DNA of 64,000 bases. It comes from an uncultured Acidobacteriaceae bacterium. Lineage in GTDB: Bacteria; Acidobacteriota; Terriglobia; Terriglobales; Acidobacteriaceae. Shown here piece by piece: positions 8,034 through 50,238 of the stretch. Every line of letters begins with the position of its first letter. The first letter of the stretch is position 1. The notes beneath the pieces were generated by a model. The model saw nothing but the letters and a program-made list of their open reading frames with translations. It was not told the DNA's origin and did not search any database. The translations under genes and the position numbers were made by a program. The stretch lies in contig CAWBUJ010000006.1 in NCBI GenBank assembly GCA_963791975.1, forward strand, positions 42,815 through 106,814, in the 5' to 3' direction.

Positions 8034-8557
8034 TCCAGAAGAAAATCTGCATGCTGGGTTCTTTCGGAGTGGGCAAGACCAGTCTGGTCGCGCGTTTCGT
8101 GCAAGGAATTTTCTCCGGCAAATATCTCAGCACCGTGGGCGTAAAGATTGACAAGAAGGAAATCAAGGTGGGCGACCAGGATGTGCTGCTGCTGCTCTGG
8201 GACCTGGCCGGGGAGGATTCCCACTCGCAAGTCCAGACCTCCTACCTGCGCGGCGCGGCCGGATACTTCCTCGTCGTGGACGGTACCTTTGCCGAATCGC
8301 TGGTCACGGCCAAGAGCATTCACAAGCGGGCCATCGAGGCGGTCGGCGAAATCCCGTTCATGCTCATCGTGAACAAGTCCGACCTGTGGGACCGCTGGGA
8401 GATCACCGTTCCGGAGCTGGAAAAGCTGCAAGCCGAAGGATGGAGCGTGCAGGTCACCAGCGCCAAAACTGGCGAAGGCGTGGAGAAAATGTTCCAGACC
8501 ATGACCGAGCAGGTCCTGCGCAACTCTGCTCCGAGCGAGGCCGCCACCGAGGCGTAA
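8030..8557 (+). CDS. Ras/Rab-like small GTPase
   Basis: G1 GSFGVGKT, G3 WDLAGED, G4 NKSD, G5 SAK. The start overlaps the upstream stop in ATGA. Confidence 0.85.
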   Translation: MIQKKICMLGSFGVGKTSLVARFVQGIFSGKYLSTVGVKIDKKEIKVGDQDVLLLLWDLAGEDSHSQVQTSYLRGAAGYFLVVDGTFAESLVTAKSIHKRAIEAVGEIPFMLIVNKSDLWDRWEITVPELEKLQAEGWSVQVTSAKTGEGVEKMFQTMTEQVLRNSAPSEAATEA

Positions 8558-8748
8558 ACGCTCGCGCCGTGATGTAGCTTCAGCAACCGAAAGACGTTCG
8601 TAGGGTGGACGTGAAGACCAGTCGAAGATCTGCGGCACTGCCTCACCAAGCCGACCCAAAGGGCTGGATGTCAGAGAACTGTCTCTTCTCCAGTGAAGGG
8701 GAAGGTGTTTTCTCTTGACGTCTCCTCTCATAAAACCCACCAATATTT

Positions 8749-11239: not shown

Positions 11240-11962
11240 CTAGTACTCGCGTGTCTGCACGACTCTCAGAGCGGCAAATCCTAGAACTGCCGCAACTCCG
11301 AGCGAAATACCCATGCTGGCCCACGGAATAGAATGCGGGGGGAATAGAGGCAAACCCATAGCCCGGAAGACATTCAGGGGTGCCAGCAGCGGGACCTTAG
11401 ATAAGAGGGCCAGGAGAAGTGCAACCCCGAACAGACTTACCCAGTTTCGATAAACCTCATCCATAAAAGTTGAAAGCAATGTTCCAACAAAATAAAATAC
11501 GGAAGTGCCCGCCGAGAGGCTTACCCACAGGAAAAACAGGTTTGAGAGCGAGACTGGCGGGTCCCCCGGCTCGACGATGGCGGCCCAGATAGCGTAGGGA
11601 GCGATGGCAAGGATGCCAACGGTCTCCAACATACCTAATCCGGCCCGTGTGGCGAAAAGACGAAACCGGCTGACGGGCAGCGAAAGCGTAAAATACGTGG
11701 AGCCTCTAACCCCCCTTTTCCGGCTGCCATATTCAGTCTTGATTCCGGATCCGGCAAGGAATAGCGGAATAATCGAGTAGTACATTCCGAAATACCCGAA
11801 CCCGTTTTCAGCCTCTGCTAACTCAGCCGCAGTTGGCGCATGTTGTCCACGAGTTGTCGGATGGTGACCCACAGCTAAGGTTAGGACAAGTGGAAACACC
11901 GCGAACGAAAGCAAAAAAACCACCTTGAATCGCGTCTCAAGCCAGCCTTTGTACCAAAGCAT
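11240..11962 (-). CDS. ABC-2 type transporter permease
   Basis: 240 aa, multi-TM, starts immediately after the ATPase stop. Confidence 0.65.
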   Translation of the reverse strand: MLWYKGWLETRFKVVFLLSFAVFPLVLTLAVGHHPTTRGQHAPTAAELAEAENGFGYFGMYYSIIPLFLAGSGIKTEYGSRKRGVRGSTYFTLSLPVSRFRLFATRAGLGMLETVGILAIAPYAIWAAIVEPGDPPVSLSNLFFLWVSLSAGTSVFYFVGTLLSTFMDEVYRNWVSLFGVALLLALLSKVPLLAPLNVFRAMGLPLFPPHSIPWASMGISLGVAAVLGFAALRVVQTREY

Positions 11963-12856
11963 TTAGTTGCTCCTTACGTGTTCGAGGAAGATTTCCTTCA
12001 ATGTGACCGGAAATCGCTCGACTGAAGCGCCCGGTAACGACCGGGCCTGGTTGATAATGGCCTCCACATTTCGACTTGCCAGAATGTCGAAGGTGCGCCC
12101 GTCCTGGCGCACGTGCTCCGCTCCCTCACCCCACTGGACCGGAGCTTTCAGTTCTTCCCCAAAGACAACTCGCAGCCGTTGATACTGCGTCTTCAAATCG
12201 TCGAGCGAGCCCGTAACCACCGCTGCCCCGTGGTCGATGATGCAGACCCGGTCCGCGATCTGCTCCACTTCTTCTAATTGGTGCGACGAAAAAAAGATGG
12301 TCGTTCCTTCGCTGGCGGAGATAGCGACCAGTTCGCGCAGCATGTCCTCTACTGCTACCGGATCCAGACCCTCGGTGGGTTCGTCCAAAATGAGAAGCTC
12401 GGCGGCATGTGAGATTGCCAGCAGCAGCATGAACCTCGATCGCATGCCCTTCGACAGATCCGAAATCTTGCGTTTTGGTGGGAGATCGAACAGCTTCAGG
12501 TAGCGCTTCTCCACGTCCACGCGCCATTTGGGAAAGAAGCTTCGTGTGAAGCGGATGATCTGCTCCACCGTCATGTACGGATAGAGCTCCTTGTCTTCCG
12601 TGACGAACCCGAGCCTCCGACGGATCTCGATGCCGGCCGACAAATCTCCAGCCGGCAGGCCGAAGACGCGCGCGTCTCCGCGGTCAGGTTTCAAAAGCCC
12701 CATCAGAAGCCTGATCGTGGTGGTTTTCCCGGTGCCATTCCGGCCCAGGAAACCAAAAATGCTTCCCGCGGGCACCTCGAGGGTGAGGCCCGCCAGTGCT
12801 GGTTGCCCCTCGAAGGATTTACGGAGTCCCCGCGCTTCTATTACCCAGTCACTCAT
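11963..12856 (-). CDS. ABC transporter ATP-binding protein
   Basis: Walker A GRNGTGKTT, signature LSKGMRSR, Walker B LLILDEP. Start at MSDWVIEARGL overlaps the gntR stop by 8 nt. Confidence 0.85.
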   Translation of the reverse strand: MSDWVIEARGLRKSFEGQPALAGLTLEVPAGSIFGFLGRNGTGKTTTIRLLMGLLKPDRGDARVFGLPAGDLSAGIEIRRRLGFVTEDKELYPYMTVEQIIRFTRSFFPKWRVDVEKRYLKLFDLPPKRKISDLSKGMRSRFMLLLAISHAAELLILDEPTEGLDPVAVEDMLRELVAISASEGTTIFFSSHQLEEVEQIADRVCIIDHGAAVVTGSLDDLKTQYQRLRVVFGEELKAPVQWGEGAEHVRQDGRTFDILASRNVEAIINQARSLPGASVERFPVTLKEIFLEHVRSN

Positions 12857-13250
12857 GGTCTCCTCCAGATGCCTTTCCCGGGCGATGCTGCGCCAGTTCG
12901 TTTTCAAACAGCCTTCTTATCTCGTCTTCCGTCAGACCAAGGTCGGCGAGCCCATCAAGCGCGGACTGGACAATGGTCTGGGCCCTCTTGGTGACCCGGG
13001 CCCGCCCGCCCACCGATTCGCTGACAAACGCCCCCGAGCCATGTTTCAACTCGATGATTCCCTCGTGTTGAAGCTCGCGATAGGCGCGCACGACGGTGTT
13101 CGGGTTCATCACCAGGTCCTCCGCCATTTTGCGAATGGTCGGGAGCTGATCGCCCGCCTTCAACGCGCCCGTTTCGATGGCGTGTCTAATCTGCTCCATA
13201 AGTTGGAGGTACATCGGCAAGCCAGTGGACGAATTGAGACGAAAAAGCAT
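12849..13250 (-). CDS. GntR-family (YtrA-like) transcriptional regulator
   Basis: 133 aa. PMYLQLMEQIRHAIETGALKAGDQLPTIRKMAEDLVMNPNTVVRAYRELQHEG is a typical GntR wHTH. First gene of a regulator-ATPase-permease operon. Confidence 0.85.
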   Translation of the reverse strand: MLFRLNSSTGLPMYLQLMEQIRHAIETGALKAGDQLPTIRKMAEDLVMNPNTVVRAYRELQHEGIIELKHGSGAFVSESVGGRARVTKRAQTIVQSALDGLADLGLTEDEIRRLFENELAQHRPGKASGGDHE

Positions 13251-13258
13251 TGTCTTAT

Positions 13259-13276
13259 GTACTAGTAGACTAGTAC
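13259..13276. promoter_or_regulatory. Candidate GntR operator: perfect inverted repeat GTACTAGT-AG-ACTAGTAC
   Basis: 8-bp arms read directly, 9 nt upstream of the gntR start codon. Confidence 0.5.
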
Positions 13277-13360
13277 ACTATACACTACAGTTTTCGCATG
13301 TCAAGCGGAAAATAGAGTTTCTTGGACCGGCGGGTTTCTAGGGTTTGACGTTTCTTGCAG

Positions 13361-13378
13361 GTACATACTTTTATGTAC
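13361..13378. promoter_or_regulatory. Inverted repeat GTACATA-CTTT-TATGTAC
   Basis: 7-bp perfect arms in an A/T-rich divergent intergenic region. Confidence 0.35.
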
Positions 13379-13385
13379 CGCAGAC

Positions 13386-13408
13386 ACATACTACTATGTG
13401 TAGTATGT
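13386..13408. promoter_or_regulatory. Inverted repeat ACATACTAC-TATGT-GTAGTATGT
   Basis: 9-bp perfect arms read directly. Confidence 0.35.
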
Positions 13409-13738
13409 ACCTATTTGGGCGGATTTTCGTACCTAAACCCTTGTGCAACAATACACTAGATATAAACCATTTAGAATGTGATGCTTGCGACATATTTGCG
13501 GGATAAGTCATTGATTCTACGTAGAACGCAGGGAGGGGAGTTTTTGTCTGTCGCAACCGCATCGCGCATCGCAGATTTCGGACGTTTCAGACTTCGCTGA
13601 CAAGCCAAACGTGGCGGAAACTGTCATTGCGAGATGGCTCCAGCCAACCAGGAATCTGCTTTTCGGTGAGGGCGTTTTTTCCCAGGGTTGTGATGAAGTA
13701 GAGTTCGTCGTGGCGCGAGCCCCTGCTAGCATAGCTCT

Positions 13739-14779
13739 GTGGGTCTGCTGCTCGAGGTTTGCAATCTCACCGTTGAATTCGCTACTGCTCAGGGAAGTGC
13801 AACCGCTGTCCGCGACGTGACCTTTCAGATTGCTCCGGGCGAGGTGCTGGGACTGGTGGGCGAATCGGGATCGGGGAAGTCGGTGAGCGCGCTGGCGATT
13901 CTGCGGCTGCTGCCGCCGCAGGCGCGCATATTGGGGGAGATCAGGTTCCGGGAAGAAAATCTTCTGGCGATGCCCGAGGCGCAACTGCGCCGCGTTCGCG
14001 GCTCCGGAATCAGCATGATCTTCCAGGAGCCGATGACCGCGCTCAATCCCGTGATGCGCGTGGGAGACCAGATCGCCGAGGCAGTGCTGGCACATGCGGA
14101 AAGGCAGCTCCCTCGACTCGCTACGCTCGCTGGGGATGACAACGATAAGATTTCTTTGCGCGGCAAAGTAAGCAGGGCCAAGGCTTGGCGGCTGGCGGTC
14201 GAAGCGTTGCGCACGGTTGCCATTGCCGAACCCGAACGGCGCGCGCGCGACTACCCTCATCAGCTGTCGGGCGGCCAGCGGCAGCGGGTGATGATCGCCA
14301 TGGCGGTGGTGAACCGCCCGTCGCTGCTCATCGCGGACGAGCCGACGACGGCGCTGGACGTTACCATTCAGGCGCAGGTGCTCGACCTGCTGAGCGAGTT
14401 GCGCGAGAAATTCGCGCTGGCTATGCTGTTCATCTCCCACGACCTCGCCGTGGTTTCGCAGGTGGCGCGCCGCATCGGCGTGATGTACGCGGGCAGCGTG
14501 GTCGAAATAGGAGCGGCGGAGGAAGTTTTCACGCATCCGGCCCATCCCTACACGCGCGGGCTGTTACACTCTGTGCCGACGCTGCGCAGCGAGCGCAGCC
14601 GACCACTTCAGACGATTGAGGGGACCGTGCCTGCCATCACCGCTTTGCCACCGGGTTGCGCGTTCGAGCCGCGCTGCTCATCGCGCATCGCAAGCTGCTG
14701 CCTCGAACTTCCGCCGCTGGTGGAAGTGGCGCCCGGCCATCTGGCGCGTTGTCCCGTGGTATCGGCGGAGGTCTGCTGA
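13739..14779 (+). CDS. DppD/OppD-like oligopeptide-type ABC ATP-binding protein with no adjacent permease or binding protein
   Basis: Walker A GESGSGKS, signature LSGGQRQR, Walker [13 protein letters not shown], oligopeptide C-terminal region with [10 protein letters not shown]. Confidence 0.8.
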
Positions 14780-32488: not shown

Positions 32489-33496
32489 ATGAGTCACGCG
32501 ACAGGAACTTTGTTTCCGAGAATTGACCGCGCGGCATCGGTCGAACCGGAGTGGGTTGCCGTTCTGAGGCGCCGCGAAGAAATGCTCTGGGGTTCCCTTA
32601 AGAATCTCGGGCCCCAGCAGAGGCATCACCTTTCTGACCGCGCCACCTATGTTCACTGCGAGGCCTTAAGCTGGATTTCGGATCTACCCGCGAATTCGAT
32701 ACACGCCGTCGTCACCGACCCACCATACGGTATGGTGGAGTACGACGAAAAAAACCACGCAAAGCTTCGCAAGGGTAGAGGGGGGGTGTGGAGGATTCCG
32801 CCTAGCTTCGACGGCGCAAATCGAAAGCCGGTACCTCGATTCACGGTTTTATCCAAGGAGGAAATTCTAAATCTCCACGGGTTTTTCAGTGCGGTGGCTT
32901 ATGGCCTCCTTAAGGCCCTAGTGCCCGGCGGTCACGTTTTTGTCGCCTCTAATCCGTTGCTTTCGACCACAACCTTTCACGCATTTATAGAGTCCGGCTT
33001 CGAGAAGCGGGGTGAGGTCATCCGCCTGGTGCAGACGCTCCGCGGCGGAGACCGACCCAAAGGCGCGGAACGGGAATTTTCAGATGTCACGGCGATGCCG
33101 AGGTCTTGCTGGGAGCCTTGGGGCATCTTTCGCAAGCCGATCGAAGAAACACTGGCCGAAAATCTGCGGGCTTGGGGAACGGGTGGACTACGCAGAATCT
33201 CGGAGGAAGAGCCGTTTAAGGACGTGATTATTTGTTCTCCCACGCGAGGGCTCGAAAAAGAAATCGCGCCTCATCCATCGCTCAAGCCGCAACGTTTCTT
33301 GCGTAAGCTGGTTCGAGCCGCGCTGCCTCTGGGGATCGGAATCATTTACGATCCTTTTGCAGGATCAGGTTCCACTTTGGCAGCAGTCGAAGCGGTTGAG
33401 TACCGTGGAGTCGGAACCGATTCCGACCCCCAGTACTTTGCTCTGGCGAAGCAGGCGTTTCAATCGCTATCTTCGCTGCAGCTACCTGATCAGTAA
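32489..33496 (+). CDS. Beta-class DNA methyltransferase (N6-adenine or N4-cytosine)
   Basis: Motif IV VVTDPPYG lies N-terminal to motif I YDPFAGSGSTLAA. The true start may be internal. Confidence 0.85.
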   Translation: MSHATGTLFPRIDRAASVEPEWVAVLRRREEMLWGSLKNLGPQQRHHLSDRATYVHCEALSWISDLPANSIHAVVTDPPYGMVEYDEKNHAKLRKGRGGVWRIPPSFDGANRKPVPRFTVLSKEEILNLHGFFSAVAYGLLKALVPGGHVFVASNPLLSTTTFHAFIESGFEKRGEVIRLVQTLRGGDRPKGAEREFSDVTAMPRSCWEPWGIFRKPIEETLAENLRAWGTGGLRRISEEEPFKDVIICSPTRGLEKEIAPHPSLKPQRFLRKLVRAALPLGIGIIYDPFAGSGSTLAAVEAVEYRGVGTDSDPQYFALAKQAFQSLSSLQLPDQ

Positions 33497-33502
33497 TGGG
33501 CG

Positions 33503-34120
33503 ATGCCGATCCTCCGCAACCACGCCGATCCAACCAGGTTTAACCAGGGCGCGATCCTGCCGTTTGAGCTGCGACTCAAGGATTTTGAAATGGCAATGCA
33601 GGACGTATATGACTTCTTCTATGACGTGAACCTGCTACTTTTGAGTAAGGGCCTCCGGAGACTGGACGACATGCTTCGGCCCGCCATCATGTCAGGGCTT
33701 CTTTCTGACATGCTAACGGCGAGCCTCGCCAGGCACTCGCGGACTCTCGTACAGAATAAGTATTTCAATGGACATCCGGATCTGGTGGTCCGGGGAGTGT
33801 ATCCGAGCGACAGCATTAAAGCGGGGTCAGACGGCGTTGAAATTAAGACAACCAGAAAAGCCGGCGGGGCGGTGGATACCCACGGTGCACGCGATCAATG
33901 GATGTGCGTGTTCGTGTACGACATCGACAATGTGACAGAGCCAGCAGTTGACCGCCATCCAATGGCGTTTACAGAGATTTATCTTGGCCAGGTGACGATC
34001 GCCGATTTCCGTCAAAACGCGCGCGGTCCACTCGGTACCAGGACGGCGACGCTGGGCCGGGATGGAATTGCGAAGTTGAGAAGTAACTGGCTTTACCGTC
34101 TGAAATGGCCTGACCCGTGA
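33503..34120 (+). CDS. Putative type II restriction endonuclease (PD-(D/E)xK)
   Basis: GHPDLVV...(20 aa)...DGVEIKTT fits PD...ExK. Starts 6 nt after the methyltransferase stop. Confidence 0.6.
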   Translation: MPILRNHADPTRFNQGAILPFELRLKDFEMAMQDVYDFFYDVNLLLLSKGLRRLDDMLRPAIMSGLLSDMLTASLARHSRTLVQNKYFNGHPDLVVRGVYPSDSIKAGSDGVEIKTTRKAGGAVDTHGARDQWMCVFVYDIDNVTEPAVDRHPMAFTEIYLGQVTIADFRQNARGPLGTRTATLGRDGIAKLRSNWLYRLKWPDP

Positions 34121-40644: not shown

Positions 40645-40673
40645 CCACTAACCACCAGCCACTAGCCACTAAC
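40645..40673. repeat. Heptanucleotide array CCACTAA CCACCAG CCACTAG CCACTAA C
   Basis: Read directly. Ends 2 nt from the permease stop codon. Confidence 0.75.
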
Positions 40674-40674
40674 T

Positions 40675-41490
40675 TCATCCGTACGTCTTTCCCTCATCCC
40701 TCCGGTACCCCCATCCGGCCAGGCCCAGGCAGAGCAGGGTGAAGGCGATCAGTGCCTCGATGTGTCCCCAGGCAGGAGTTGGGTTGTTCACCATCCCAAC
40801 CGCATTCAGCGCCAACTGGCTGAGGTGGTAAGGCGGCAGCACTTTGGCAAAGGTTTGCAGCCCGCGAGGCAGCAGGAACAACGGTATCCACAGCCCCGAA
40901 CAGAACGACATAGGCAGGTAAATCAGGTTGACCAGTCCGGGCGCCGAGTTGGGCTTGGCGAAGTAGCCGATGGCCATGCCCATGGCGCTGAACGGGATTG
41001 CCCCGGCGACTAGAATGCCGACGAGTTTGGCCGCCGTTGCCACCGGCATGCGCACGCCACCGAAGACGATGCCGATGGCCAGCAGCAACAACATGATCAC
41101 CGTACTGAAGACGACCGCGGAGCACAGCTTCCCTAAGAAATAAGCGGACACCGGCATAGGCGAGGCGCGTTTCACTTGCAGCCAGCCCTGTCCGCGCTCG
41201 ATGGCGAGACTCACGCCGAAGCCGAACAAAGCCACCGCGATCACGCCGAAACAGCCCATGGTCGCCAGCATGTAGGTTGCATTTTCCTTGCGATCTGCGG
41301 CATTCGACCCCAACACGATCCCGAACAGTACATAGAACATCACTGGGAACGCCACAGTTGAGATGGCATACACGGGAATGCGAATGTTTTTGAGCAGCTC
41401 GTATTTTGCCTCTTTGACGTACAGGGCAATGGTCCGCGAGAGCGAGCGTTGCGGCGCGGCGACAACCGCGGGAAAAGTGGTGGCAGCCAT
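40675..41490 (-). CDS. ABC-2 type transporter permease
   Basis: Multi-TM. Start ATG 41490 is 1 nt after the ATPase stop, with GGGAGG upstream. Confidence 0.75.
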   Translation of the reverse strand: MAATTFPAVVAAPQRSLSRTIALYVKEAKYELLKNIRIPVYAISTVAFPVMFYVLFGIVLGSNAADRKENATYMLATMGCFGVIAVALFGFGVSLAIERGQGWLQVKRASPMPVSAYFLGKLCSAVVFSTVIMLLLLAIGIVFGGVRMPVATAAKLVGILVAGAIPFSAMGMAIGYFAKPNSAPGLVNLIYLPMSFCSGLWIPLFLLPRGLQTFAKVLPPYHLSQLALNAVGMVNNPTPAWGHIEALIAFTLLCLGLAGWGYRRDEGKTYG

Positions 41491-41491
41491 G

Positions 41492-42448
41492 TTAGTTCCT
41501 CCCATTTGCATCGGAGTGGTTGTTCTGGGTGAGCGCCAGGAACGCTTCTTCCAGGCCAGCGTTGGTCACCTCCAGGTCGCCCAGCCAGGAATCGCGCTGC
41601 AACAGCTCGCGCACCACCGGTTCGGCGACGTTCACCTGCAGCTCGAAGGCATTACGGTCGGCCTTCACACTCAGCACCCCAGGAATCCCCCGCACTTCTT
41701 CCAGGGAGAGGCGGCTGGTGCAGCGAATCTGCTTGCCCATGGCGCGCGCTTTGATCTCGGCGGGAGTGCCTTCGGCCACGATCTCACCCTTGTCCAGCAC
41801 CAAAATGCGGTCGGCCAGCGCATCGGCTTCGTTCAGATAGTGGGTGGTGAGCAGCACCGTCTTGGCGCGCGCGATGAGGGTGCGAATCTGCGACCACATC
41901 AGCCGCCGCGCTTCCACGTCGAGACCAACCGTTGGCTCGTCGAGAAACAGCAGGTCGGGATCGCCGCAGATCGCGATGCCAAACAGCACGCGCTGCTTTT
42001 GTCCGCCCGAGAGCTCGCCGAAGGGCCGGTTCTTGATGTCCTCAATGCCGGCGATCCGGAAGGTCTCATGCAGCGGCAGAGGCCGCGGATAGTAGGACGA
42101 AAACAGGTCTATGTGCTCGCGCACACGCAGAGTTTCCGGCACGCGGCCAACCTGAAGCATGGCGCCGAGACGCGGCTGCACCTTTCCTTGGTGCGGGTCA
42201 GCGCCAAACACTGAGACGCTGCCCGAGTCGGGCCTGGCCAGGCCGAGCAGCATCCGCACCAGCGTGGTTTTGCCAGCGCCATTGGGACCGAGCAAGGCCA
42301 GCAATTCGCCTGCGCGCACCTCCAGGTTGAAGTTACGCAGGGCCACAATCGCCCCGTAGCTCTTGGTTAGGTTGCGCGTCGCGGCGACACTGACCGGCCG
42401 CGGGGCGGCAGCGCTGAGCTGCATTTCGGCTAGAGCAGTTGACATCAT
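41492..42448 (-). CDS. ABC transporter ATP-binding protein
   Basis: Walker A GPNGAGKTT, signature LSGGQKQR, Walker B LLFLDEPT. Confidence 0.88.
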   Translation of the reverse strand: MMSTALAEMQLSAAAPRPVSVAATRNLTKSYGAIVALRNFNLEVRAGELLALLGPNGAGKTTLVRMLLGLARPDSGSVSVFGADPHQGKVQPRLGAMLQVGRVPETLRVREHIDLFSSYYPRPLPLHETFRIAGIEDIKNRPFGELSGGQKQRVLFGIAICGDPDLLFLDEPTVGLDVEARRLMWSQIRTLIARAKTVLLTTHYLNEADALADRILVLDKGEIVAEGTPAEIKARAMGKQIRCTSRLSLEEVRGIPGVLSVKADRNAFELQVNVAEPVVRELLQRDSWLGDLEVTNAGLEEAFLALTQNNHSDANGRN

Positions 42449-42739
42449 TCACTCCTGTGCTCAGGAATCCTTGCGAGCACGGGACGATCTTCCGTCATGC
42501 GCTGGGCGGACAGTAGTGTGGATTGTCAGGCTGGGGGAGTGACAAATGTCATGGCGGGGCGGCGGTAGGGCCATCACCACCGCAAGGCCCTCATCAAGCC
42601 TAAGGCGGGAAGGGCCTAAGCCACGTTCCCGGGCGCTCTGGCCTTCTCCGGCGCAGACGCAGACGGGTTTCCCTTATCGCGACAGGCAATTTCCTAAACG
42701 GTAGCCAGTCAAAGAAGGACGGAGACGAAAGACAGGGAT

Positions 42740-42934
42740 CTAAGCTGTGCGGCGGCTTTTCTGGGGAGAGGCTGGCGATTTTATCGAGGTCGACTGAATG
42801 TCCAACTGATCGTTGGAAATATCGAGCGCCGCCCGGTATGCCGCCGCGACACGGTCTTCTATTTCGCGGCTGATACGGACACCCTCGGTCTCGATTCCGT
42901 AGTATCCCATCCCGATTTCGTGAACCGCAGCCAT
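42740..42934 (-). CDS. 64-aa hypothetical protein downstream of the MPE-GAF gene
   Basis: ORF with an AGGA-like SD. No recognised motif. Confidence 0.3.
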   Translation of the reverse strand: MAAVHEIGMGYYGIETEGVRISREIEDRVAAAYRAALDISNDQLDIQSTSIKSPASPQKSRRTA

Positions 42935-43033
42935 GCTCTGATCCTACGGTGACTCCGTGCTCCTGTCAAGGAAGAACACGCGCCCCGAATCAACCCGTAT
43001 TATAGTGGAAACCGATTCCGGGACAATCCGCAG

Positions 43034-45253
43034 CTAACCGCTTTTTAGGAACAAATCCCGCAGCGATTCGAACAATAGCAGGTTGATCCGGTGCTGAAAT
43101 GCCGCTGCCTCCGGCACTTTTTCCGGCAAGCGGAGATCTCGGAGCGGGCAATCGGCACGCTCGCTGCCAACGTTCAGAACGCCGTAAGGGCGCTTCTGCT
43201 TATAAATATCCTTTTTGTTGTCCCAGATGGCCGGATCCACCGGAGCGTGCACCGGAAAGGAAGCCAGCACCTTGTGGGTAGGCGAGCCGGGTACATGCCG
43301 GTAATAAAGCGGAGCATCTTCCCGGTTGTTTCTAACAGGCGCCACATACACTTTTATGCTGTTGGCTTTGAAGGCCCGGCCGGCTATACCCGTGCCGTAG
43401 CGTAACTGGGTTTCGTAGTGCATGGGTACGGGCTCGTAGTTGCCGCTGGCCGCTTTCGTTTCGCGAACCCCTGCCAGCATCGGCAGGCTGGAGTCAGCAT
43501 CCAGATACATGAAACTTCCGGTTAGAGGCCCGGACCAGTCTTTGGCGAAGACATCACGCGTCATCAGAAAGATACGACAGATCAGAGCGATGACTTTCTT
43601 CCGCTGCTCTTCGGTGACTGAGTCCGAACGCCAGATGTCCCACAGCTCCTGCGGGGTTCCTTGAATCGATTCATCGGCAGCGGCCTGAGCTTCCGGCACG
43701 TCCCATTGAATTCCGTAACTTAGACCCTGCTGCGGACGGCGGACTCGTAGAGCGGCGCTCCGAAGGCTTTCGTAGTAGCGCAGAGCATGGACGTTGTACA
43801 GATGCGCATAGACCTCAGAATCGGTTTCCCACTTCCGGCTATCCGGCTGGTTGGAATCGATCCGGGCGATGCGCAGCCGCGGCTCGCCGGGCCGGAAGCC
43901 CTTGGGGAACTGCACCACGACCGTCAGATTTTCGATAGGGTCAACCACCGGGTAATGCGTGTATTCGACATTCCATAATCGTGTCTGTTCGCGGGCGTAT
44001 TTGTGGTCAAATTGCAACTCATCCATGGCAAAAGAGTTCACCGCATGCCAGGAATACTGATAACTCGCCGCATGGTCAGGACCAGCCGAGATAGCGGGAT
44101 CGAAGTGCAGGGGTGAGTTCCAGACCTGATTGTCCTGGTCCATCGGAGGGATGCGCTTTACCACCGTAACCTTGAGCCCGCCGCTGCCCTTGGCGGTCAA
44201 GCCCGCGAGATAACCCGAGGTGGGAGCCAACTGCACCTGATGTTCTCGATCTCTTTCGTTCCCGGAGACCTTGACTGTCAGGTCTCCGCACTCCACCACT
44301 CGCCGGGCATCGCCATCCTCGTCCAGCACGGCGATCGAGGCTACCTCGCGGTAAAAATATCCTTCCCGTTGGATCCTCTGCTCCCAAACCATCTGTTGCG
44401 TCGATTCTTCTGTGCGAACCACGAATGGAGCGGGCTGCGGCTTCTCCGACCATTCGGTGGCTACGTTGTAGTAAAACTCAACCGCCGCCTTCTTCTCCTC
44501 GACGTTCACGACGCCGAACCAATTCAGGTAGGGGTTGTCCATTTGGCGCAGGGTTGCCCCGAGGCTAACCACCGAAACGTTATGCCGGTTGTCGCCCAGC
44601 GTGCTCCAGAAGCCAGCTCGCGCCTGCAAGTGTTCGTGCCCATGCAGTATCAGGTCGACCTTGCGGAACAGCACCGGAGACAGGAACTGCCCCGAGTTGA
44701 TCATAGTGAGCCACTTAGCCCGGAAATCGTGACTCCAGTTGACCGGCAGGGGATGGTGATGCACGGCCACTATCTTGAACGCACCTGCAAAATCCGGGTC
44801 GGCGCCCGAGATCTGGTCATACCGCCGGTTAAAGTGCATGACCTCTTCTTCCCTGATCCGGCCGCTGCCTCCCAACTCACCTTCCTCGGCCGAGTTGAAG
44901 CCGAAGACCCAAACCTTGGTGCTGCCAACTTTGTAAAAGCCCTCCGACTTATAATCGCGCCACGCGTCGTCGTATTTATCGGCGGCGAACTTCCCCTTCC
45001 AGCCACCTAACTGGTAATCGTGATTTCCAGGGACAACGATGAGGCGCGTATTTGCCCGTCCGCTGCATTTCTTTTCCGCTTTGTCGAGGAACTCCTTCGC
45101 CAGATTCCACAGCTCATGCTTCGGGCCGTCTGCGAGGTCGCCGGTGCACACAATCACGTCGATGTCGAGCTTCTCGATCCTTCGCAGAAGGCTTTCGGCT
45201 AGCGCTTCATTATGTTTGCCAAAATGCAGGTCGGAAATGTGTAGCAGACGCAT
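43034..45253 (-). CDS. 739-aa protein: class-III-PDE-like metallophosphoesterase, unknown middle region, GAF-like C-terminal domain
   Basis: HISDLHFG, TGDLADG, PGNHDY, VHHHP and HGHEH motifs. C-terminal ...RYGTGIAGRAFKANSIKVYV... is GAF-like. Confidence 0.75.
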   Translation of the reverse strand: MRLLHISDLHFGKHNEALAESLLRRIEKLDIDVIVCTGDLADGPKHELWNLAKEFLDKAEKKCSGRANTRLIVVPGNHDYQLGGWKGKFAADKYDDAWRDYKSEGFYKVGSTKVWVFGFNSAEEGELGGSGRIREEEVMHFNRRYDQISGADPDFAGAFKIVAVHHHPLPVNWSHDFRAKWLTMINSGQFLSPVLFRKVDLILHGHEHLQARAGFWSTLGDNRHNVSVVSLGATLRQMDNPYLNWFGVVNVEEKKAAVEFYYNVATEWSEKPQPAPFVVRTEESTQQMVWEQRIQREGYFYREVASIAVLDEDGDARRVVECGDLTVKVSGNERDREHQVQLAPTSGYLAGLTAKGSGGLKVTVVKRIPPMDQDNQVWNSPLHFDPAISAGPDHAASYQYSWHAVNSFAMDELQFDHKYAREQTRLWNVEYTHYPVVDPIENLTVVVQFPKGFRPGEPRLRIARIDSNQPDSRKWETDSEVYAHLYNVHALRYYESLRSAALRVRRPQQGLSYGIQWDVPEAQAAADESIQGTPQELWDIWRSDSVTEEQRKKVIALICRIFLMTRDVFAKDWSGPLTGSFMYLDADSSLPMLAGVRETKAASGNYEPVPMHYETQLRYGTGIAGRAFKANSIKVYVAPVRNNREDAPLYYRHVPGSPTHKVLASFPVHAPVDPAIWDNKKDIYKQKRPYGVLNVGSERADCPLRDLRLPEKVPEAAAFQHRINLLLFESLRDLFLKSG

Positions 45254-45481
45254 GGTAGGGGAGACAATCTTACAATTTGGTTATTCGTGATTTCAACTTA
45301 GAATTCGGTGTCGAACCGGGCATTCCATTACTGCAGGAATCGCGTTGTGATCCGGGTGAACTCTGGAACGGACGGAATTAGGAGGAAAGCCAGCCGGCAC
45401 AGGGGAAAAGCTGAGATGCACTCTAACTCGCCCTGCTTTTCAATTCCTTTCGACGGAGACGCCCCAACGAATTCCCTTTTC

Positions 45482-45495
45482 GTGACTCAAGTCAC
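45482..45495. promoter_or_regulatory. Perfect palindrome GTGACT-CA-AGTCAC in a divergent intergenic region
   Basis: Read directly. A half-site-like GTGA...TCAC follows 10 nt later. Confidence 0.3.
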
Positions 45496-45621
45496 AAATC
45501 GCAGGTGATAGCAGTCACGGCTCTTCCGCCCGTAAAGCGTCACACTGATTAGTAAGAGTGAGGAGTCCGCCCGGTCGATCTGCACCCTCGGCAAGCGCCG
45601 GCCCGGAGAGAGAGGTGAGCC

Positions 45622-46089
45622 GTGCTCCACGCATATCGCTTGGTCAAGCTGATTGAAAACCATTCCGACGGGCTGGCCCGAAGCCTGCACAACCGCTATC
45701 GCAACTGTAGCAAGTGCTCGGCGTACGCCGGCGTTCCCGAGAGCGAACTGATCGAGAAGGTGTACGAAGTGTATCGTCACCTGGGCGGGTGGTTGCTGGG
45801 CAAGACGGAGGCCGACATTGAAAGCCGTTATCTTGAAATCGGCGCGCAACGTGCGGCCCAGGGCGTGCCCATCAGCCAGGTGGTGTGGATGATCTGCCTG
45901 GTGCGGGAGAACCTGTGGGATTACATGCAGAAGCATGCCGAGTTGGAGCGCCCAGCGGAAATCTTCGGCGAACTCGAACTGCTGGAGATGCTCGACAAGT
46001 TCTTCCACCTAGCCATCTACTATGCCGCTTTGGGTCACGAGCGCGCGACTGCCGGCGTCACTCTGACGGTCGAGACACTGACCCGATAA
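45622..46089 (+). CDS. RsbRD N-terminal domain-like protein
   Basis: 155 aa. MLHAYRLVKLIENHSDGLARSL... resembles the RsbRD_N family. GTG start after GGAGAGAGAGG. Confidence 0.5.
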   Translation: MLHAYRLVKLIENHSDGLARSLHNRYRNCSKCSAYAGVPESELIEKVYEVYRHLGGWLLGKTEADIESRYLEIGAQRAAQGVPISQVVWMICLVRENLWDYMQKHAELERPAEIFGELELLEMLDKFFHLAIYYAALGHERATAGVTLTVETLTR

Positions 46090-46100
46090 AGAGACAATTT

Positions 46101-47426
46101 ATGTCCTGGATTGAGCAATACAACAGCAAATTGAAAACCGCGCATGAAGCGGTCGCTGGCGTGGAGTCCGGGATGCGGGTGTATATCCATCCCGGCTGCG
46201 CCGAGCCGGAGTCCCTGGTGGAAGCGCTGATGGTGCGCGCGCCCTTCGTGAAGGACGTGGAAGTAATGCACCTGCTGACCCACGGCACCTCCCCGTATTG
46301 CGCGCCGGAGATGGCGGAACATTTCCGGCACAACGCGTTGTTCGTCGGCGGCAACGTTCGCGAGGCGGTGAACGACGGCCGCGCCGACTATACGCCGATC
46401 TTCCTGAGCGAGGTCGAAGCGCTGTTCGAAAGCGGCGAGATTCCGATCGACGTCGCCTTCATTCAGGTCTCACCCCCCGATCCGCATGGTTATTGCAGCT
46501 TTGGAGTAGGAGTCGATTGCACGCTGACCGCCGCGAAGTACGCCCATTGCGTGGTGGCGCAGGTGAATGCCCAGATGCCGCGCACCTACGGCGACAGCTT
46601 CATTCACGTGAGCGAAATCGACACCATCGTGGAGCTATCGCGCCCGCTCTGCGAATTGCAGAAGCAACCCGGCAGCGAGTTGTTCCGGACGATTGGGTCG
46701 CAGGTGGCGTCGCTGATCGAGGACGGTGCCGTCTTACAATGTGGGATAGGCGGCATTCCCGACGCAGTACTGCCGAACCTGATGGACCGAAAAGACCTCG
46801 GAGTTCACACGGAGTTGATTTCGGATAACGTCATTCCGCTAATCGATGCCGGCGTCATCAATGGGCAGCGCAAGAACGTCAAGCCGCGCAAAATCATCCT
46901 TGGCTTTGTGCTGGGGACGAAAACGCTGTTCGACTTCATCGACGAGAACCCCATCTTCGAGTTTCATCCTTCTGCCTACACCAACGATCCGATGCGCATT
47001 GCGGCCAACGACCGCATGGTGGCCATCAACTCGGCAATCGAAGTGGACCTGACCGGCCAGGTTTGCGCCGAGTCGATCGGGCCGAACTTTTACAGCGGCT
47101 TTGGCGGCCAGCTCGACTTCATGCGCGGCGCTGCGCGCTCCAAATGGGGCAAGCCGATCATCGCACTCCCTTCGACCGCCAAGAATGACACCGTGTCGCG
47201 CATTGTGCCGAGGCTGGCGAACGGCGCCGGTGTGCTGACCACGCGTGCCGACGTGCATTACGTCGTCACCGAGTACGGCGTGGCCTATCTGCACGGCAAG
47301 ACGGTGCGCCAGCGGGCCGAAGCGCTCATCCAGATTGCTCATCCCAAGTTCCACAATGAGTTGTTCGATTATTGCGAGCGGCAGCGCTGGTTCCAGCGCA
47401 ACGCTTGCGTAGAAGTGCGAGGGTAA
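46101..47426 (+). CDS. Acetyl-CoA hydrolase/transferase family protein (4-hydroxybutyrate CoA-transferase-like)
   Basis: 442 aa. ...[12 protein letters not shown]..., GIGGIPDAV..., [13 protein letters not shown] motifs. Confidence 0.8.
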
Positions 47427-47437
47427 GGAGCCTAAGA

Positions 47438-47728
47438 ATGACATCGCAACCGCGCGGTAACGTAATCATCGATCCCGAAGAATGTAAGGGCTGCGGCTTG
47501 TGCGTCGAGTCGTGCCCTCCCGAGTGCCTGTTCCTGGCGCCGGAACTGAGTAAGTACGGCGTCCATCCGGCGCAGTACAGCGGCCAGGACTGTACCGGAT
47601 GCGGGGCATGCTTCTATTGCTGCCCTGAGCCCGGAGCCATTGTCGTCTATCGCCTCATTCCCCCCGCGAGGGCGGTCAGCGGGGCGGTCGTGCAAAAGCA
47701 GGAGGTGGGCCATGAGGCAGCTCTGTAA
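47438..47728 (+). CDS. 4Fe-4S ferredoxin-type delta subunit of 2-oxoacid:ferredoxin oxidoreductase
   Basis: [12 protein letters not shown] and [12 protein letters not shown] motifs. AAGGAG SD. Confidence 0.8.
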
Positions 47729-48764
47729 GGGGAATGTCGCCATCGTGAAAGGCGCGGTGCTGGCGGGTTGCAAAGCCTACTACGGATATCCCATCACCCC
47801 CGCCAGCGAGATCGCCGAATACGCCTCGCTCCTCATCCCCGAAGTGGGAGGTACTTTTTTGCAGGCGGAAAGCGAAGTGTCGGCCATCAACATGGTCTAT
47901 GGTGCGGCTTCAGCCGGCCTGCGCGTGATGAGTGCCTCTTCCGGCCCGGGTCTCAGCCTGATGCAGGAAGGCATGTCCTACATTGCGGGAGCCGAGCTGC
48001 CGTGCGTGATTGTTGACGTGGTGCGCGGCGGACCCGGCTTGGGCAACATCGCCCCCGAGCAGAGCGACTACTTCTGCATCGTGAAGGGCGGCGGCCATGG
48101 CTGCTATCGCAACATCGTGCTTGCGCCTTCGTCGGTACAGGAGATGTTCGACCTCACCGTGCTCGCCTTCGAACTGGCCGACCGTTATCGCAACCCCGCG
48201 GTCATCATGACTGACGGTTATGTAGGGCAGATGATGGAGCCGCTGGACATCAAGCTGCGCAACATCGAAGCGCCAGCCAAAGACTGGGCGGTGCGGGGGA
48301 CCGTGGAGACGAAGAAGAACCTGGTCTCCTCCATCTTCCTTGAGCCCGATGTTCTGGAGGCCCACGTCCAGAAGCTGGAAGCCAAGTATCAGCTGGCTCA
48401 GGAACTCGAGACCCGGTGCGAAGAATACCTGACCGAGGACGCTGACGTACTGCTGGTCGGCTTCGGCATCGTCTCGCGCGTGCTGCGCTCCACCGTGGAC
48501 CAGCTTCGCGCCCAGGGGATGAAAGCCGGCTTGTTCCGTCCGATTACCTTATGGCCGTTCCCGGCCCGCGAGCTGCGCGAGACCGCCAAACGCGTGAGGT
48601 CGGTCATGGTGGTCGAGCTCAACACCGGCATGATGGTGGAAGACGTGAAGCTGACGCTTAACGGCGTGCTACCGGTTGAGTTCTACGGACGCGCTGGGGG
48701 CAACGTTCCCATGGCGGAAGAAATTACCGCGCAGGTTTTTTCGCGCATGTCAGCCCTGGTGTAG
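47712..48764 (+). CDS. 2-oxoacid:ferredoxin oxidoreductase alpha subunit
   Basis: [28 protein letters not shown]... N-terminus is typical of the family. Confidence 0.85.
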
Positions 48765-48780
48765 AGGACGAGGAGGGATT

Positions 48781-50238
48781 GTGAACGGGTACGAAGTCAT
48801 CCATGAAAAATCGCCTGCGTTTTACGACCGGTTCGAGCGCAAGGGAGAATTGCAGCAGCAAACCCACTATTGCCCGGGTTGCGGGCACGGCGTCGTGCAC
48901 AAGCTGATCGCCGAAGCCCTCACCGAGCTTGGTCTGCAGGACCGCGCCATCCTGGTGAGCCCCGTGGGCTGCTCGGTCTTCGCCTATTACTACTTTGATG
49001 TGGGTAATGTGCAGGTGGCTCACGGTCGGGCCCCGGCCGCGGCCACGGCCCTCAAGCGGGCGCATCCCGAGTCCATCGTCATGTCGTACCAGGGCGACGG
49101 CGACCTGGCGGCCATCGGCACCGCGGAGATTATCCATGCCGCGAACCGCGGTGAGAACATCAGCGTGTTTTTCGTCAACAACTCTATTTACGGCATGACT
49201 GGAGGGCAGATGGCGCCCACTACCCTGGTGGGCCAGGTAAGCACTACCTCGCCCTGGGGGCGGCGTCCCAGCAACGAAGGACTGCCGCTGCATGTTGCCG
49301 AGCTGTTGGCTTCGCTGGAAACGCCCACCTACATCGAGCGCGTTGCGCTCAGCGACATGAAGAACATCATGAAGGCCAAAAAAGCGGTGAAGAAGGCGCT
49401 GGAGACCCAGAAGAACGGCGGCGGCTTCTCGCTGGTAGAAATTCTCTCGCCGTGCCCGACCATCCTGAAGATGGATCCCGTGGTCGCCCGCAAATGGGTG
49501 GGCGACGCGCTGGTCAAGGCATTCCCGCTGGGCGTGTTCCGCGACCGCAAGCCGGTGCTGCCGGAGAGTGCCAAGGTCCCGCACAAGACCATTGCCGAGG
49601 CCCTGGAGGTAGAGGAGGGTGCGCCGGAAACCACTGCGCCGCGCCGTCATCAACACACCCGCGATTTGAGACTGAAGATCGCCGGCTTCGGCGGCCAAGG
49701 CATCCTGCTGATGGGACAACTGCTGGCCGAGATGGGCCTGCGCGAGCACCTGGAAGTCAGTTGGCTGCCTTCGTACGGTCCCGAGATGCGCAGCGGTAGC
49801 GCCCACTGCCACGTCACGCTTTCCCACGACCGCATTGGCACGCCGCTCATTTCGCAGCCGGAAGTGCTGATTGCGATGAACGAGCCGTCACTGCGCAAGT
49901 TTGGCGCCAGTGTGGCTTCCGGAGGCCTCGTCCTGTACAACGGCACGAAACTGCCTGAGGACTTCACCGTGAGTCAGGCGCGCGTGGTGTTTGTGCCCGC
50001 GTCGGAGATTGCCGATCGGCTCGGTTCGGCCAAGGTCGCTAATGTGGTCATGCTCGGCGCGCTGCTGGAGGAAACCGAGTGCCTGCCTTACGAGTCCGCG
50101 ATTTCGGTGCTGGAAGCGAAGGTCAAGAACCACAAAATGCTGGAGCTCGACAAGCTGGCCATTTCCGCCGGACGTGGATACATTGATACCGAAGTCGAAG
50201 TCGGCGCTGTCTGCCAGCCAGACGGTTACTCCTACTAG
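48781..50238 (+). CDS. 2-oxoacid:ferredoxin oxidoreductase beta subunit fused to gamma subunit
   Basis: TPP-binding beta (YCPGCGHG..., GDGD...). Then a gamma-like domain starts near residue 300 (RLKIAGFGGQGILLMGQLLA...SYGPEMRSG). Confidence 0.8.
   Translation: MNGYEVIHEKSPAFYDRFERKGELQQQTHYCPGCGHGVVHKLIAEALTELGLQDRAILVSPVGCSVFAYYYFDVGNVQVAHGRAPAAATALKRAHPESIVMSYQGDGDLAAIGTAEIIHAANRGENISVFFVNNSIYGMTGGQMAPTTLVGQVSTTSPWGRRPSNEGLPLHVAELLASLETPTYIERVALSDMKNIMKAKKAVKKALETQKNGGGFSLVEILSPCPTILKMDPVVARKWVGDALVKAFPLGVFRDRKPVLPESAKVPHKTIAEALEVEEGAPETTAPRRHQHTRDLRLKIAGFGGQGILLMGQLLAEMGLREHLEVSWLPSYGPEMRSGSAHCHVTLSHDRIGTPLISQPEVLIAMNEPSLRKFGASVASGGLVLYNGTKLPEDFTVSQARVVFVPASEIADRLGSAKVANVVMLGALLEETECLPYESAISVLEAKVKNHKMLELDKLAISAGRGYIDTEVEVGAVCQPDGYSY

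Follow-up and report, generated by a model that had tools for sequence, protein, structure and literature searches.

What does the 739-residue protein encoded at positions 43034-45253 of a 64,000-nucleotide stretch from an uncultured Acidobacteriaceae bacterium (contig CAWBUJ010000006.1; the whole stretch is called the window below) do for the cell that carries it, and does it act alone? An earlier note, made from the letters of the sequence, had taken it for a stand-alone protein in which a calcineurin-like phosphoesterase and a GAF-like sensor are joined, and had proposed a regulator or quencher of cyclic (oligo)nucleotide signaling, probably acquired horizontally and possibly with a role in conflict or defense. 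Our analysis leads to a different picture, namely a mobile pair of genes, in which the large protein is accompanied by a conserved protein of about 60 residues. We read this pair as a two-gene conflict cassette, most probably devoted to anti-phage or another abortive-type defense, and hold this reading with somewhat better than even confidence. The parts of the cassette, in window coordinates, are:

43034..45253, minus strand: the large gene, 739 amino acids, coding for a metallophosphoesterase, an all-beta domain and a GAF domain (open reading frame and translation, homologs, AlphaFold2 model)
44444..45253, minus strand: residues 1-270, calcineurin-like metallophosphoesterase (MPP) domain, the candidate effector (Pfam PF00149, motifs, Foldseek)
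43658..44428, minus strand: residues 276-532, linker helix and large all-beta domain of beta-sandwich or saddle form (separate AlphaFold2 model, Foldseek)
43037..43657, minus strand: residues 533-739, GAF-like domain with a long C-terminal helix, with the motif YGxGIAGRAFK (G620, G622, G625, K629; family-level Pfam matches, PDB profile search)
43034-43036, minus strand: stop codon of the large gene
42740..42934, minus strand: the small partner gene, 64 amino acids, MAAVHEIGMGYYGIETEGV... (sequence, substitution rates, profile search, locus counts)
45267..45296, minus strand: promoter-like hexamers TTGAAA-18-TAAGAT, a weak consensus match that ends 14 nucleotides before the ATG of the large gene

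The large gene is a 739-codon open reading frame (ORF) without interruptions, as had been noted, but it runs on the minus strand from 45253 to 43034, the plus-strand reading of 43034-45253 being full of stops. All the motifs quoted earlier are found in the minus-strand translation, which starts MRLLHISDLHFG: HISDLHFG (residues 5-12), TGDLADG (37-43), GNHD (76-79), HHHP (165-168), GHEH (205-208) and the C-terminal stretch that had been likened to a GAF domain, LRYGTGIAGRAFKANSIKVYVAP (616-638). The remark that the gene has no obvious Shine-Dalgarno sequence likewise holds, as nothing resembling AGGAGG was found upstream of its ATG; the promoter-like pair at 45267..45296 would give a very short leader, which fits this lack. 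Promoter-like sites in the cassette region, three against a shuffled expectation of 1.5 +/- 1.3, are not in excess, and the count of terminators in the region is also not above the shuffled expectation.

Judged by its Pfam match, motifs and predicted fold, the protein is a member of the calcineurin-like metallophosphoesterase superfamily. The five metal-binding blocks of the superfamily (DxH, GD, GNH[DE], H and GHxH) are all present, as D8-x-H10, G38-D39, G76-N77-H78-D79, H165-H167 and G205-H206-x-H208, and their residues are invariant or at least 90% conserved across 70 aligned sequences. PF00149 (Metallophos), the sole Pfam match in the protein, covers residues 1-208 with 65.1 bits against a cut-off of 21.5 (E = 1.5e-17). 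The full-length AlphaFold2 model, computed from 70 aligned homologs, falls into three parts (mean predicted local distance difference test score, pLDDT, 91.2; predicted template modeling score, pTM, 0.83); its best Foldseek matches, at probability 1.00, are the MPP alpha/beta sandwiches of YydB, Lmo2642, GpdQ, Rv0805 and SMPDL3A/B. These results bear out the complete motif set recognized earlier and, with the conserved metal ligands embedded in a matching fold, the phosphoesterase looks catalytically competent. As a separate observation, in five distant members of the family (P0068, P0071-P0074) the MPP domain holds a hydrophobic insert of ~60-70 residues resembling two transmembrane helices (e.g., LLLLALSLAIYKSGLLTVFPTLLWLILATVLVGLFLIRSLFF), which suggests membrane-anchored variants.

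Which chemistry might such a domain perform? The best NCBIfam matches are to validated anti-phage effectors: DS9_1 (DS-9A; 72.5 bits, E = 3.2e-20) and DS8 (53.2 bits, E = 1.1e-14), the latter confined to the N-terminal ~80 residues. The same ~80 residues account for the matches in PADLOC-DB 2.0, namely PDC-S60 (1e-10), a CBASS 'Effector' model and PDC-S10. Phage defense by DS-8 and DS-9 depends on the catalytic residues of their MPP domains (PMC13092281); in the PUA-Cal-HAD system, which is of the DS-9 type, the MPP converts dADP to dAMP within a dNTP-depleting filament (bioRxiv 10.64898/2026.01.15.699771); and in Metis it cleaves NAD+ to NMN and AMP (bioRxiv 10.1101/2025.11.05.686725). Since the MPP effectors of the DS-9 type deplete nucleotides or NAD+, cleavage of a nucleotide or dinucleotide pool is, by analogy, the most likely activity of the window protein.

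A different chemistry would follow if the protein were a GAF-regulated class III cyclic-(oligo)nucleotide phosphodiesterase, its GAF domain sensing a nucleotide and its catalytic domain turning over second messengers, either in housekeeping or in the quenching of signals like those of CBASS, Pycsar and type III CRISPR systems. We regard this as improbable. The motif set is equally that of class III phosphodiesterases, the cAMP phosphodiesterase Rv0805 stands with GpdQ and Lmo2642 among the Foldseek matches, the JGI pipelines label homologs 'CpdA', and two homolog loci lie near CBASS-like genes. However, the CpdA equivalog model (NCBIfam PRK11148) gives 19.3 bits against a cut-off of 225, well under the matches to DS-9A and DS-8, and no cyclase recurs as a conserved neighbor across the loci examined. 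Further, CpdA, Rv0805 and GpdQ share the fold and the five-block metal-binding signature with the window protein, but are single-domain proteins of ~270-320 residues with neither beta and GAF extensions nor a partner microprotein.

The region behind the MPP domain had been described as about 290 residues with no recognizable motif. There is indeed no Pfam match for residues 276-532, but they resolve into a confidently modeled all-beta domain. Because MPP matches dominate the Foldseek list of the full-length model, this domain was modeled separately (pLDDT 93.6, pTM 0.90); against the PDB, the model retrieves 3kd4_A at E = 1.5e-5 (N-terminal part of BDI_1141), along with ribophorin I, the VIT region of ITIH1 and, through their domain I, M1 aminopeptidases/LTA4H. 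These matches are weak (TMq 0.35-0.45), the best match in the viral library BFVD is of the same fold class, and such a faint likeness carries no catalytic inference. Relatives of this kind, in peptidases and a glycosylation subunit, would suit an ordinary regulatory or metabolic phosphoesterase of a stress or envelope pathway, whose beta domain binds a polymer or protein and whose small downstream ORF is incidental or a lineage-specific accessory. This we think very unlikely, for reasons of effector swapping and genomic distribution described below.

The C-terminal domain was identified at the level of the family. When 39 homologous C-terminal segments were compared with Pfam, GAF_2 was matched by 11 (best E = 1.3e-7), GAF by four, and GAF_3 and GAF_NLP by two each, and one homolog (P0052) has a precomputed match to PF13185; the window protein on its own matches none of the Pfam GAF-clan models at E <= 1. 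In a PDB search with a profile of the C-terminal segment, GAF domains come out on top (5w10, 0.0017; 3e0y, 0.0065; NreA), and the order of secondary structures in the AlphaFold2 model of residues 533-739, helix, three strands, helix, three strands and a long C-terminal helix, fits a GAF domain. The GAF-like assignment proposed in the earlier note is thereby upheld by the family-level Pfam matches and the PDB profile matches. Does this domain speak for cyclic nucleotides? The top PDB match, 5w10, is a cAMP-related GAF domain, in favor of the phosphodiesterase alternative. Against it, a regular-expression scan of residues 531-739 found no NKFDE, the signature of the cyclic nucleotide monophosphate-binding (cGMP-type) GAF domains of phosphodiesterases. 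The eukaryotic phosphodiesterases PDE2/5/6/10/11 resemble the window protein in having a GAF sensor fused to a phosphodiesterase; their catalytic domain, though, is of the HD type and not MPP, they carry NKFDE-bearing GAF domains in tandem at the N-terminus, and they show no mobility, effector swapping or microprotein.

Nor does the large gene stand alone. On the same strand, within 42449-43033, a 64-residue ORF starts 99 nucleotides after its stop codon, with AGGA 7 nucleotides before the ATG. Gene calls place small ORFs at the same position in the homolog loci; an N-terminal motif, [IL]-G-x-G-[YF]-[YF]-x-h (hGxGYYxh), recurs in the encoded proteins and is followed by a variable and polar tail. 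Relative to the two loci with the closest large proteins (L092 and L093, 74% and 66% identical, respectively), the changes in the small ORF fall mostly at third codon positions, and the ratio of nonsynonymous to synonymous substitution rates is 0.14 and 0.12 over 44 codons, with synonymous sites near saturation; the similarity at the DNA level stops at its stop codon. The search space for a hidden Markov model (HMM) of 20 small ORFs comprised 3.2 million residues in 37,937 stop-to-stop ORFs, taken from both strands of all homolog loci and the window, and the matches of the model lie solely directly downstream of family genes, including one locus outside the seed. When a small ORF was defined as one of 45-110 amino acids on the same strand with a start between -40 and +120 nucleotides of the stop of the large gene, one was present at 49 of 50 unique loci, as against 96 of 227 (42%) for other long ORFs in the same loci (Fisher's p = 5e-15). 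One homolog (P0017, 806 residues) carries the small-protein motif as an in-frame fusion at the C-terminal end of the large protein (...IDKGYYGVAPYEV...). A more distant tier, with large proteins 21-26% identical, has its own downstream ORFs of 50-85 residues with a two-strand pattern such as GVKAYDFxI, whose HMM is equally position-specific. The small protein itself has no relatives in Pfam or the PDB, and a word-indexed protein search returned only the protein itself. These comparisons indicate a real, conserved coding gene that partners the large one.

Two further observations concern the small gene. At one homolog locus, a 243-residue ORF directly after the small partner (L103, 5009-5737, plus strand) is a second significant match of the small-ORF HMM (9e-7) and may be a duplicated or extended partner. 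In the window, the stretch that separates the stop codon of the large gene from the small ORF contains two promoter-like hexamer pairs (43026-42999 and 42969-42941, minus strand; 10/12 matches each); their number is not above expectation, and the small gene might also be transcribed on its own.

A closely spaced or overlapping same-strand pair, its small member conserved at the N-terminus and variable in its polar tail, recalls toxin-antitoxin modules. The cassette could thus be an addiction or stress module with no anti-phage role, comprising a phosphoesterase toxin and a labile small antitoxin, which persists by stabilizing islands or mobile elements; its sporadic distribution and mobility would agree with this. 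We assign this account a low probability. The small protein shows no recognizable DNA-binding antitoxin fold in Pfam or the PDB, and a three-domain 'toxin' of 739 residues with a swappable effector has the pattern of an immune sensor. Many toxin-antitoxin modules are, moreover, defense systems themselves, so that this account overlaps the conflict-cassette reading.

The way the family is built bears on all of these alternatives. Of the 154 homologs of the large protein, about 60 cover its full length, with 30-74% identity; the full-length members are of metagenomic origin, mainly from Acidobacteriota (Bryobacteraceae, Terriglobia), Chthoniobacterales and Nitrospira, with some Proteobacteria. 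A profile of residues 276-739, i.e., the beta+GAF module, reaches much further: it retrieves 1,443 representative clusters (50% identity) at E <= 1e-3, and 261 of them still match at E <= 1e-30. Among the 150 best of the 1,443, the module occupies the C-terminal end. The N-termini joined to it are mostly MPP domains, including a larger variant, but others bear a TIR domain (P0230), a CHAT protease (P0226), a weak match to an alpha/beta-hydrolase (P0215) or a fragment of a kinase (P0159). Behind the CHAT variant lie two tandem paralogous small ORFs (L178, 7327-7521 and 7653-7856, plus strand; MAVKIVREIAFGEGSRGFRFKN... and MGVKIIRAVPFGAGSKGFRFRN...), the first of which matches the HMM of the distant-tier small ORFs (seed2) with E = 1e-5, and two ORFs, 67 and 68 residues long, come after the hydrolase variant. 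Thus, the small protein goes with the beta+GAF module and not with the effector. The TIR-bearing protein (2,158 residues) has no small downstream ORF; its gene comes right after VMAP-C and MoxR-like AAA genes, in a VMAP/MoxR-type conflict locus.

For the toxin-antitoxin account, a small protein that tracks the sensor module and not the type of effector speaks against an antitoxin that would block the active site. For the phosphodiesterase alternative, the module is shared with TIR, CHAT and hydrolase effectors that are unrelated to cyclic-nucleotide turnover, and both the conserved small partner and the 250-residue beta domain are left unexplained. Hence, while a GAF-gated cyclic-nucleotide phosphodiesterase is possible as to its chemistry, the proposal of a regulator or quencher of cyclic (oligo)nucleotide signaling is not supported: CpdA scores below DS-9A and DS-8, NKFDE is missing, no cyclase is a conserved neighbor, and the module serves TIR and CHAT effectors as well.

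Candidate sources of the large gene among mobile replicons were also considered and set aside. A phage origin is not indicated, the four IMG/VR matches all being to the MPP domain alone and BFVD holding no specific relative of the beta domain; nor is carriage by plasmids, whose matches cover the MPP domain only, at 26-32% identity. No specific family for the large protein is present in NCBIfam (2026), and our literature search found no description of an MPP-GAF defense system, a prior computational mention of the architecture being still possible.

How, then, did the cassette come to lie where it does? A relative, L181, agrees with the window in the order and orientation of the flanking genes, and a blastn comparison of the two resolves into the following segments:

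window 40672-42557 and L181 6600-8501: left conserved block, 76.5% identity
window 42558-45490 and L181 8502-9378: variable segment, without similarity; in the window, the cassette of 2,933 bp (small ORF, large gene and upstream region), in L181, 877 bp
window 45491-50236 and L181 9379-14175: right conserved block, 79% identity
L181 8857-9285, plus strand: a 142-residue DUF2442 gene, in the slot matching the cassette

With a DUF2442 gene in its place in L181, the cassette sits in a variable slot, and the site, between an ABC ATPase gene and an RsbRD_N gene, behaves as a cargo hotspot in this comparison. DUF2442 is a family often described as associated with toxin-antitoxin systems, and its presence in the slot is one more point for the toxin-antitoxin account. 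As to the edge of the slot, the 155-residue ORF upstream of the cassette (45622-46089, plus strand) has an L181 counterpart with a Pfam RsbRD_N match. At another locus (L001), a copy of the cassette lies between two 100%-identical 1,425-bp copies of an IS110-family element in direct orientation (8366-9790 and 12712-14136), a layout that resembles a composite transposon; the island also carries TIR, SIR2, CHAT-TPR and integrase genes. Other copies adjoin OLD-TOPRIM plus UvrD and SLFN genes, or lie near resolvase, patatin and E2/E1/JAB genes. The 135 neighboring ORFs of 17 further loci include a CBASS cyclase, CapP, methyltransferases, mad genes, two integrases and many housekeeping genes, and no neighborhood is conserved across the loci. 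In the window, no convincing terminal repeats of the cassette and no tRNA were found, and the region 42300-45900 has no Rfam match.

These contexts weigh on the idea of an ordinary enzyme. Metabolic and housekeeping neighbors, in the window and at several homolog loci, together with a native-like composition, are what it would predict. It does not, however, account for the lack of a conserved neighborhood or vertical pattern, for the absence of the gene from the syntenic slot of the close relative L181, for the swapping of the effector with TIR and CHAT, or for the copies flanked by IS110 and placed in defense islands. The conflict or defense role suggested by the earlier note draws support from the same effector swapping and defense-island contexts, although the contexts of the homologs are mixed, some in defense islands and others purely metabolic.

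The composition of the region tells a quieter story. The earlier note had drawn its case for horizontal acquisition from A/T-richer non-coding spacers and a weaker GC bias at third codon positions (GC3). Of the two spacers, 42449-43033 has an average GC content (0.585; window mean ~0.595) and holds the small ORF, and just 45254-45621 is somewhat lower (0.538). The GC3 of the large gene (0.69) is indeed below that of its immediate neighbors (0.72-0.80), but within the normal spread of the window (z = -0.36, rank 15 of 46 ORFs); its GC content and its synonymous-codon likelihood (z = +0.26) are likewise unremarkable among the 46 ORFs, and its tetranucleotide correlation (0.826; z = +0.41), though the smallest value in the 13 genes above 450 residues, stays within the overall spread. 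Composition is thus unremarkable in every measure, and what supports horizontal acquisition is the syntenic presence and absence and the IS110 context. There is a methodological point here, in that a single synteny comparison revealed a variable slot where composition gave no hint of acquisition.

Beyond the cassette, the surroundings are ordinary: one flank carries an ABC-2 transporter and a two-component system, the other the RsbRD_N-like ORF, a CoA-transferase and a 2-oxoacid:ferredoxin oxidoreductase. The CoA-transferase (45885-47426, plus strand) is 86-91% identical to homologs, some of them named Terriglobales or Candidatus Korobacteraceae, and the GatB of the window clusters at 90% identity or more with a protein of a 'Terriglobales bacterium', which places the window in a Terriglobales acidobacterium. 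As the homologs of the CoA-transferase have 442 residues, its true start is near 46098 and not the GTG at 45885. Elsewhere in the window, an N6/N4 DNA methylase ORF (Pfam 1.9e-13) and a following 205-residue ORF with no Pfam match (32489-34120, plus strand) have GC3 values of 0.59 and 0.64, against 0.76-0.80 in their neighbors; this pair, ~9 kb from the cassette, may be a small island of foreign origin or of restriction-modification type. In composition, no ORF of the window deviates more than the one of 240 residues at 11240-11962 (minus strand; GC3 0.568, synonymous-codon log-likelihood -1.40, tetranucleotide r 0.35).

How does the cassette compare with known systems? With DS-9, Metis (MisA-MisB) and PUA-Calcineurin-CE-HAD, it shares an MPP effector and a small-molecule-type sensor in one polypeptide, with a second gene alongside. 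The order of domains is reversed, however, the sensor of DS-9 being an N-terminal PUA-like domain and that of the window protein a C-terminal beta domain plus GAF behind an N-terminal effector; and the partner in DS-9 is a HAD phosphatase, in contrast to the ~60-residue protein of no known fold seen here. With DS-8, it shares the N-terminal MPP effector and the large C-terminal regulatory region, but DS-8 is a single-protein fusion of a metallophosphatase and NACHT, for which no small partner gene is described. Judged from sequence, the cassette would work like DS-9/Metis and DS-8 but is a member of neither, with scores below their cut-offs and no PUA, HAD or NACHT parts. GAF and calcineurin phosphodiesterase domains have also been listed among the components of ternary vWA-MoxR-VMAP conflict systems (Kaur et al. 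2020, PMC7159879). A distant relative of the module, the TIR-bearing protein P0230, is encoded beside VMAP-C and MoxR-like genes, whereas the window cassette has no vWA, MoxR or VMAP genes. In CapRel-type fused or two-gene toxin-antitoxin defenses, a latent toxic enzyme is checked by a small C-terminal or downstream element, fused or separate. The small element of the present family likewise occurs fused (P0017) or separate; unlike this likeness in layout, there is no relationship to CapRel-type defenses in sequence or fold.

Taking the conflict-cassette reading forward, we advance the following plausible mechanism. A conserved C-terminal module, a swappable N-terminal head, a linked small partner, sporadic distribution and mobility make up the pattern of a conflict system, and it is because of this pattern that we read the MPP domain as the effector. 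The large protein would be a latent fusion of effector and sensor, in which the binuclear-metal phosphoesterase, by analogy with its closest curated relatives, probably acts on an essential pool of nucleotides (NAD+ or (d)NDP/(d)NTP) or on a nucleotide-like molecule, cleaving phosphoanhydride or phosphodiester bonds. TIR domains are commonly NADases, and the TIR-bearing relative fits this theme of NAD+ and nucleotides. The beta+GAF module might then be the regulatory and sensing unit that keeps the effector off until a cue arrives. The ~60-residue protein could bind this module, with the conserved N-terminal strand motif hGxGYYxh as the likely contact, plausibly by sheet addition, and would serve as a regulatory subunit, either a safety catch or an element that responds to the trigger. 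A cue that accompanies infection or stress might alter the state of the small protein and the module, release the effector and arrest the growth of the cell.

Several points count against this reading. First, the matches to immune families fall far below their cut-offs (DS9_1, 72.5 against 420 bits; DS8, 53.2 against 790 bits), and PADLOC 2.0 has no full-length system model for the large protein. Second, the defining parts of those systems were not found: the protein has no PUA match and opens with MPP motif I at residues 5-12, Pfam detects no NACHT or P-loop NTPase domain in it, and no HAD domain occurs among its window neighbors at 32.5-55.9 kb. Third, within ~9 kb of the cassette the window has no defense genes, the neighbors at several homolog loci are purely metabolic, and the defense-gene neighbors seen elsewhere come from a sample of loci and are to be taken as suggestive, not as an enrichment. 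Fourth, the small ORFs of the close tier and those of the distant tier are not established as homologs, as hhalign aligns the same motif with E = 0.1; the proposal that the small protein binds the module draws on gene order and one fusion; and the C-terminal domain is called GAF-like from family-level sequence evidence.

A more far-reaching version of the mechanism, which we consider unlikely though worth stating, is that the beta+GAF module and its ~60-residue partner form a portable immune switch. The microprotein would be a guarded or bait component, or a peptide ligand of the GAF or beta-sandwich pocket, and its loss, modification or displacement in infection would license whichever effector is fused, be it phosphoesterase, TIR, CHAT protease, hydrolase or kinase. 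If true, this would be a microprotein-gated sensor family of more than 1,000 clusters at 50% identity, seen here mostly in metagenome-assembled soil Acidobacteriota and Verrucomicrobiota.

If the conflict-cassette reading itself is correct, a candidate defense family of ~1,440 clusters comes into view, the examined loci of which belong mostly to metagenome-assembled soil Acidobacteriota, Verrucomicrobiota and Nitrospira. It would extend the calcineurin-like phosphoesterase immune effectors, recently validated in DS-8 and DS-9/Metis, to a new sensor architecture, and the conserved microprotein that travels with the sensor module would offer a handle on how such single-protein systems stay off and switch on.

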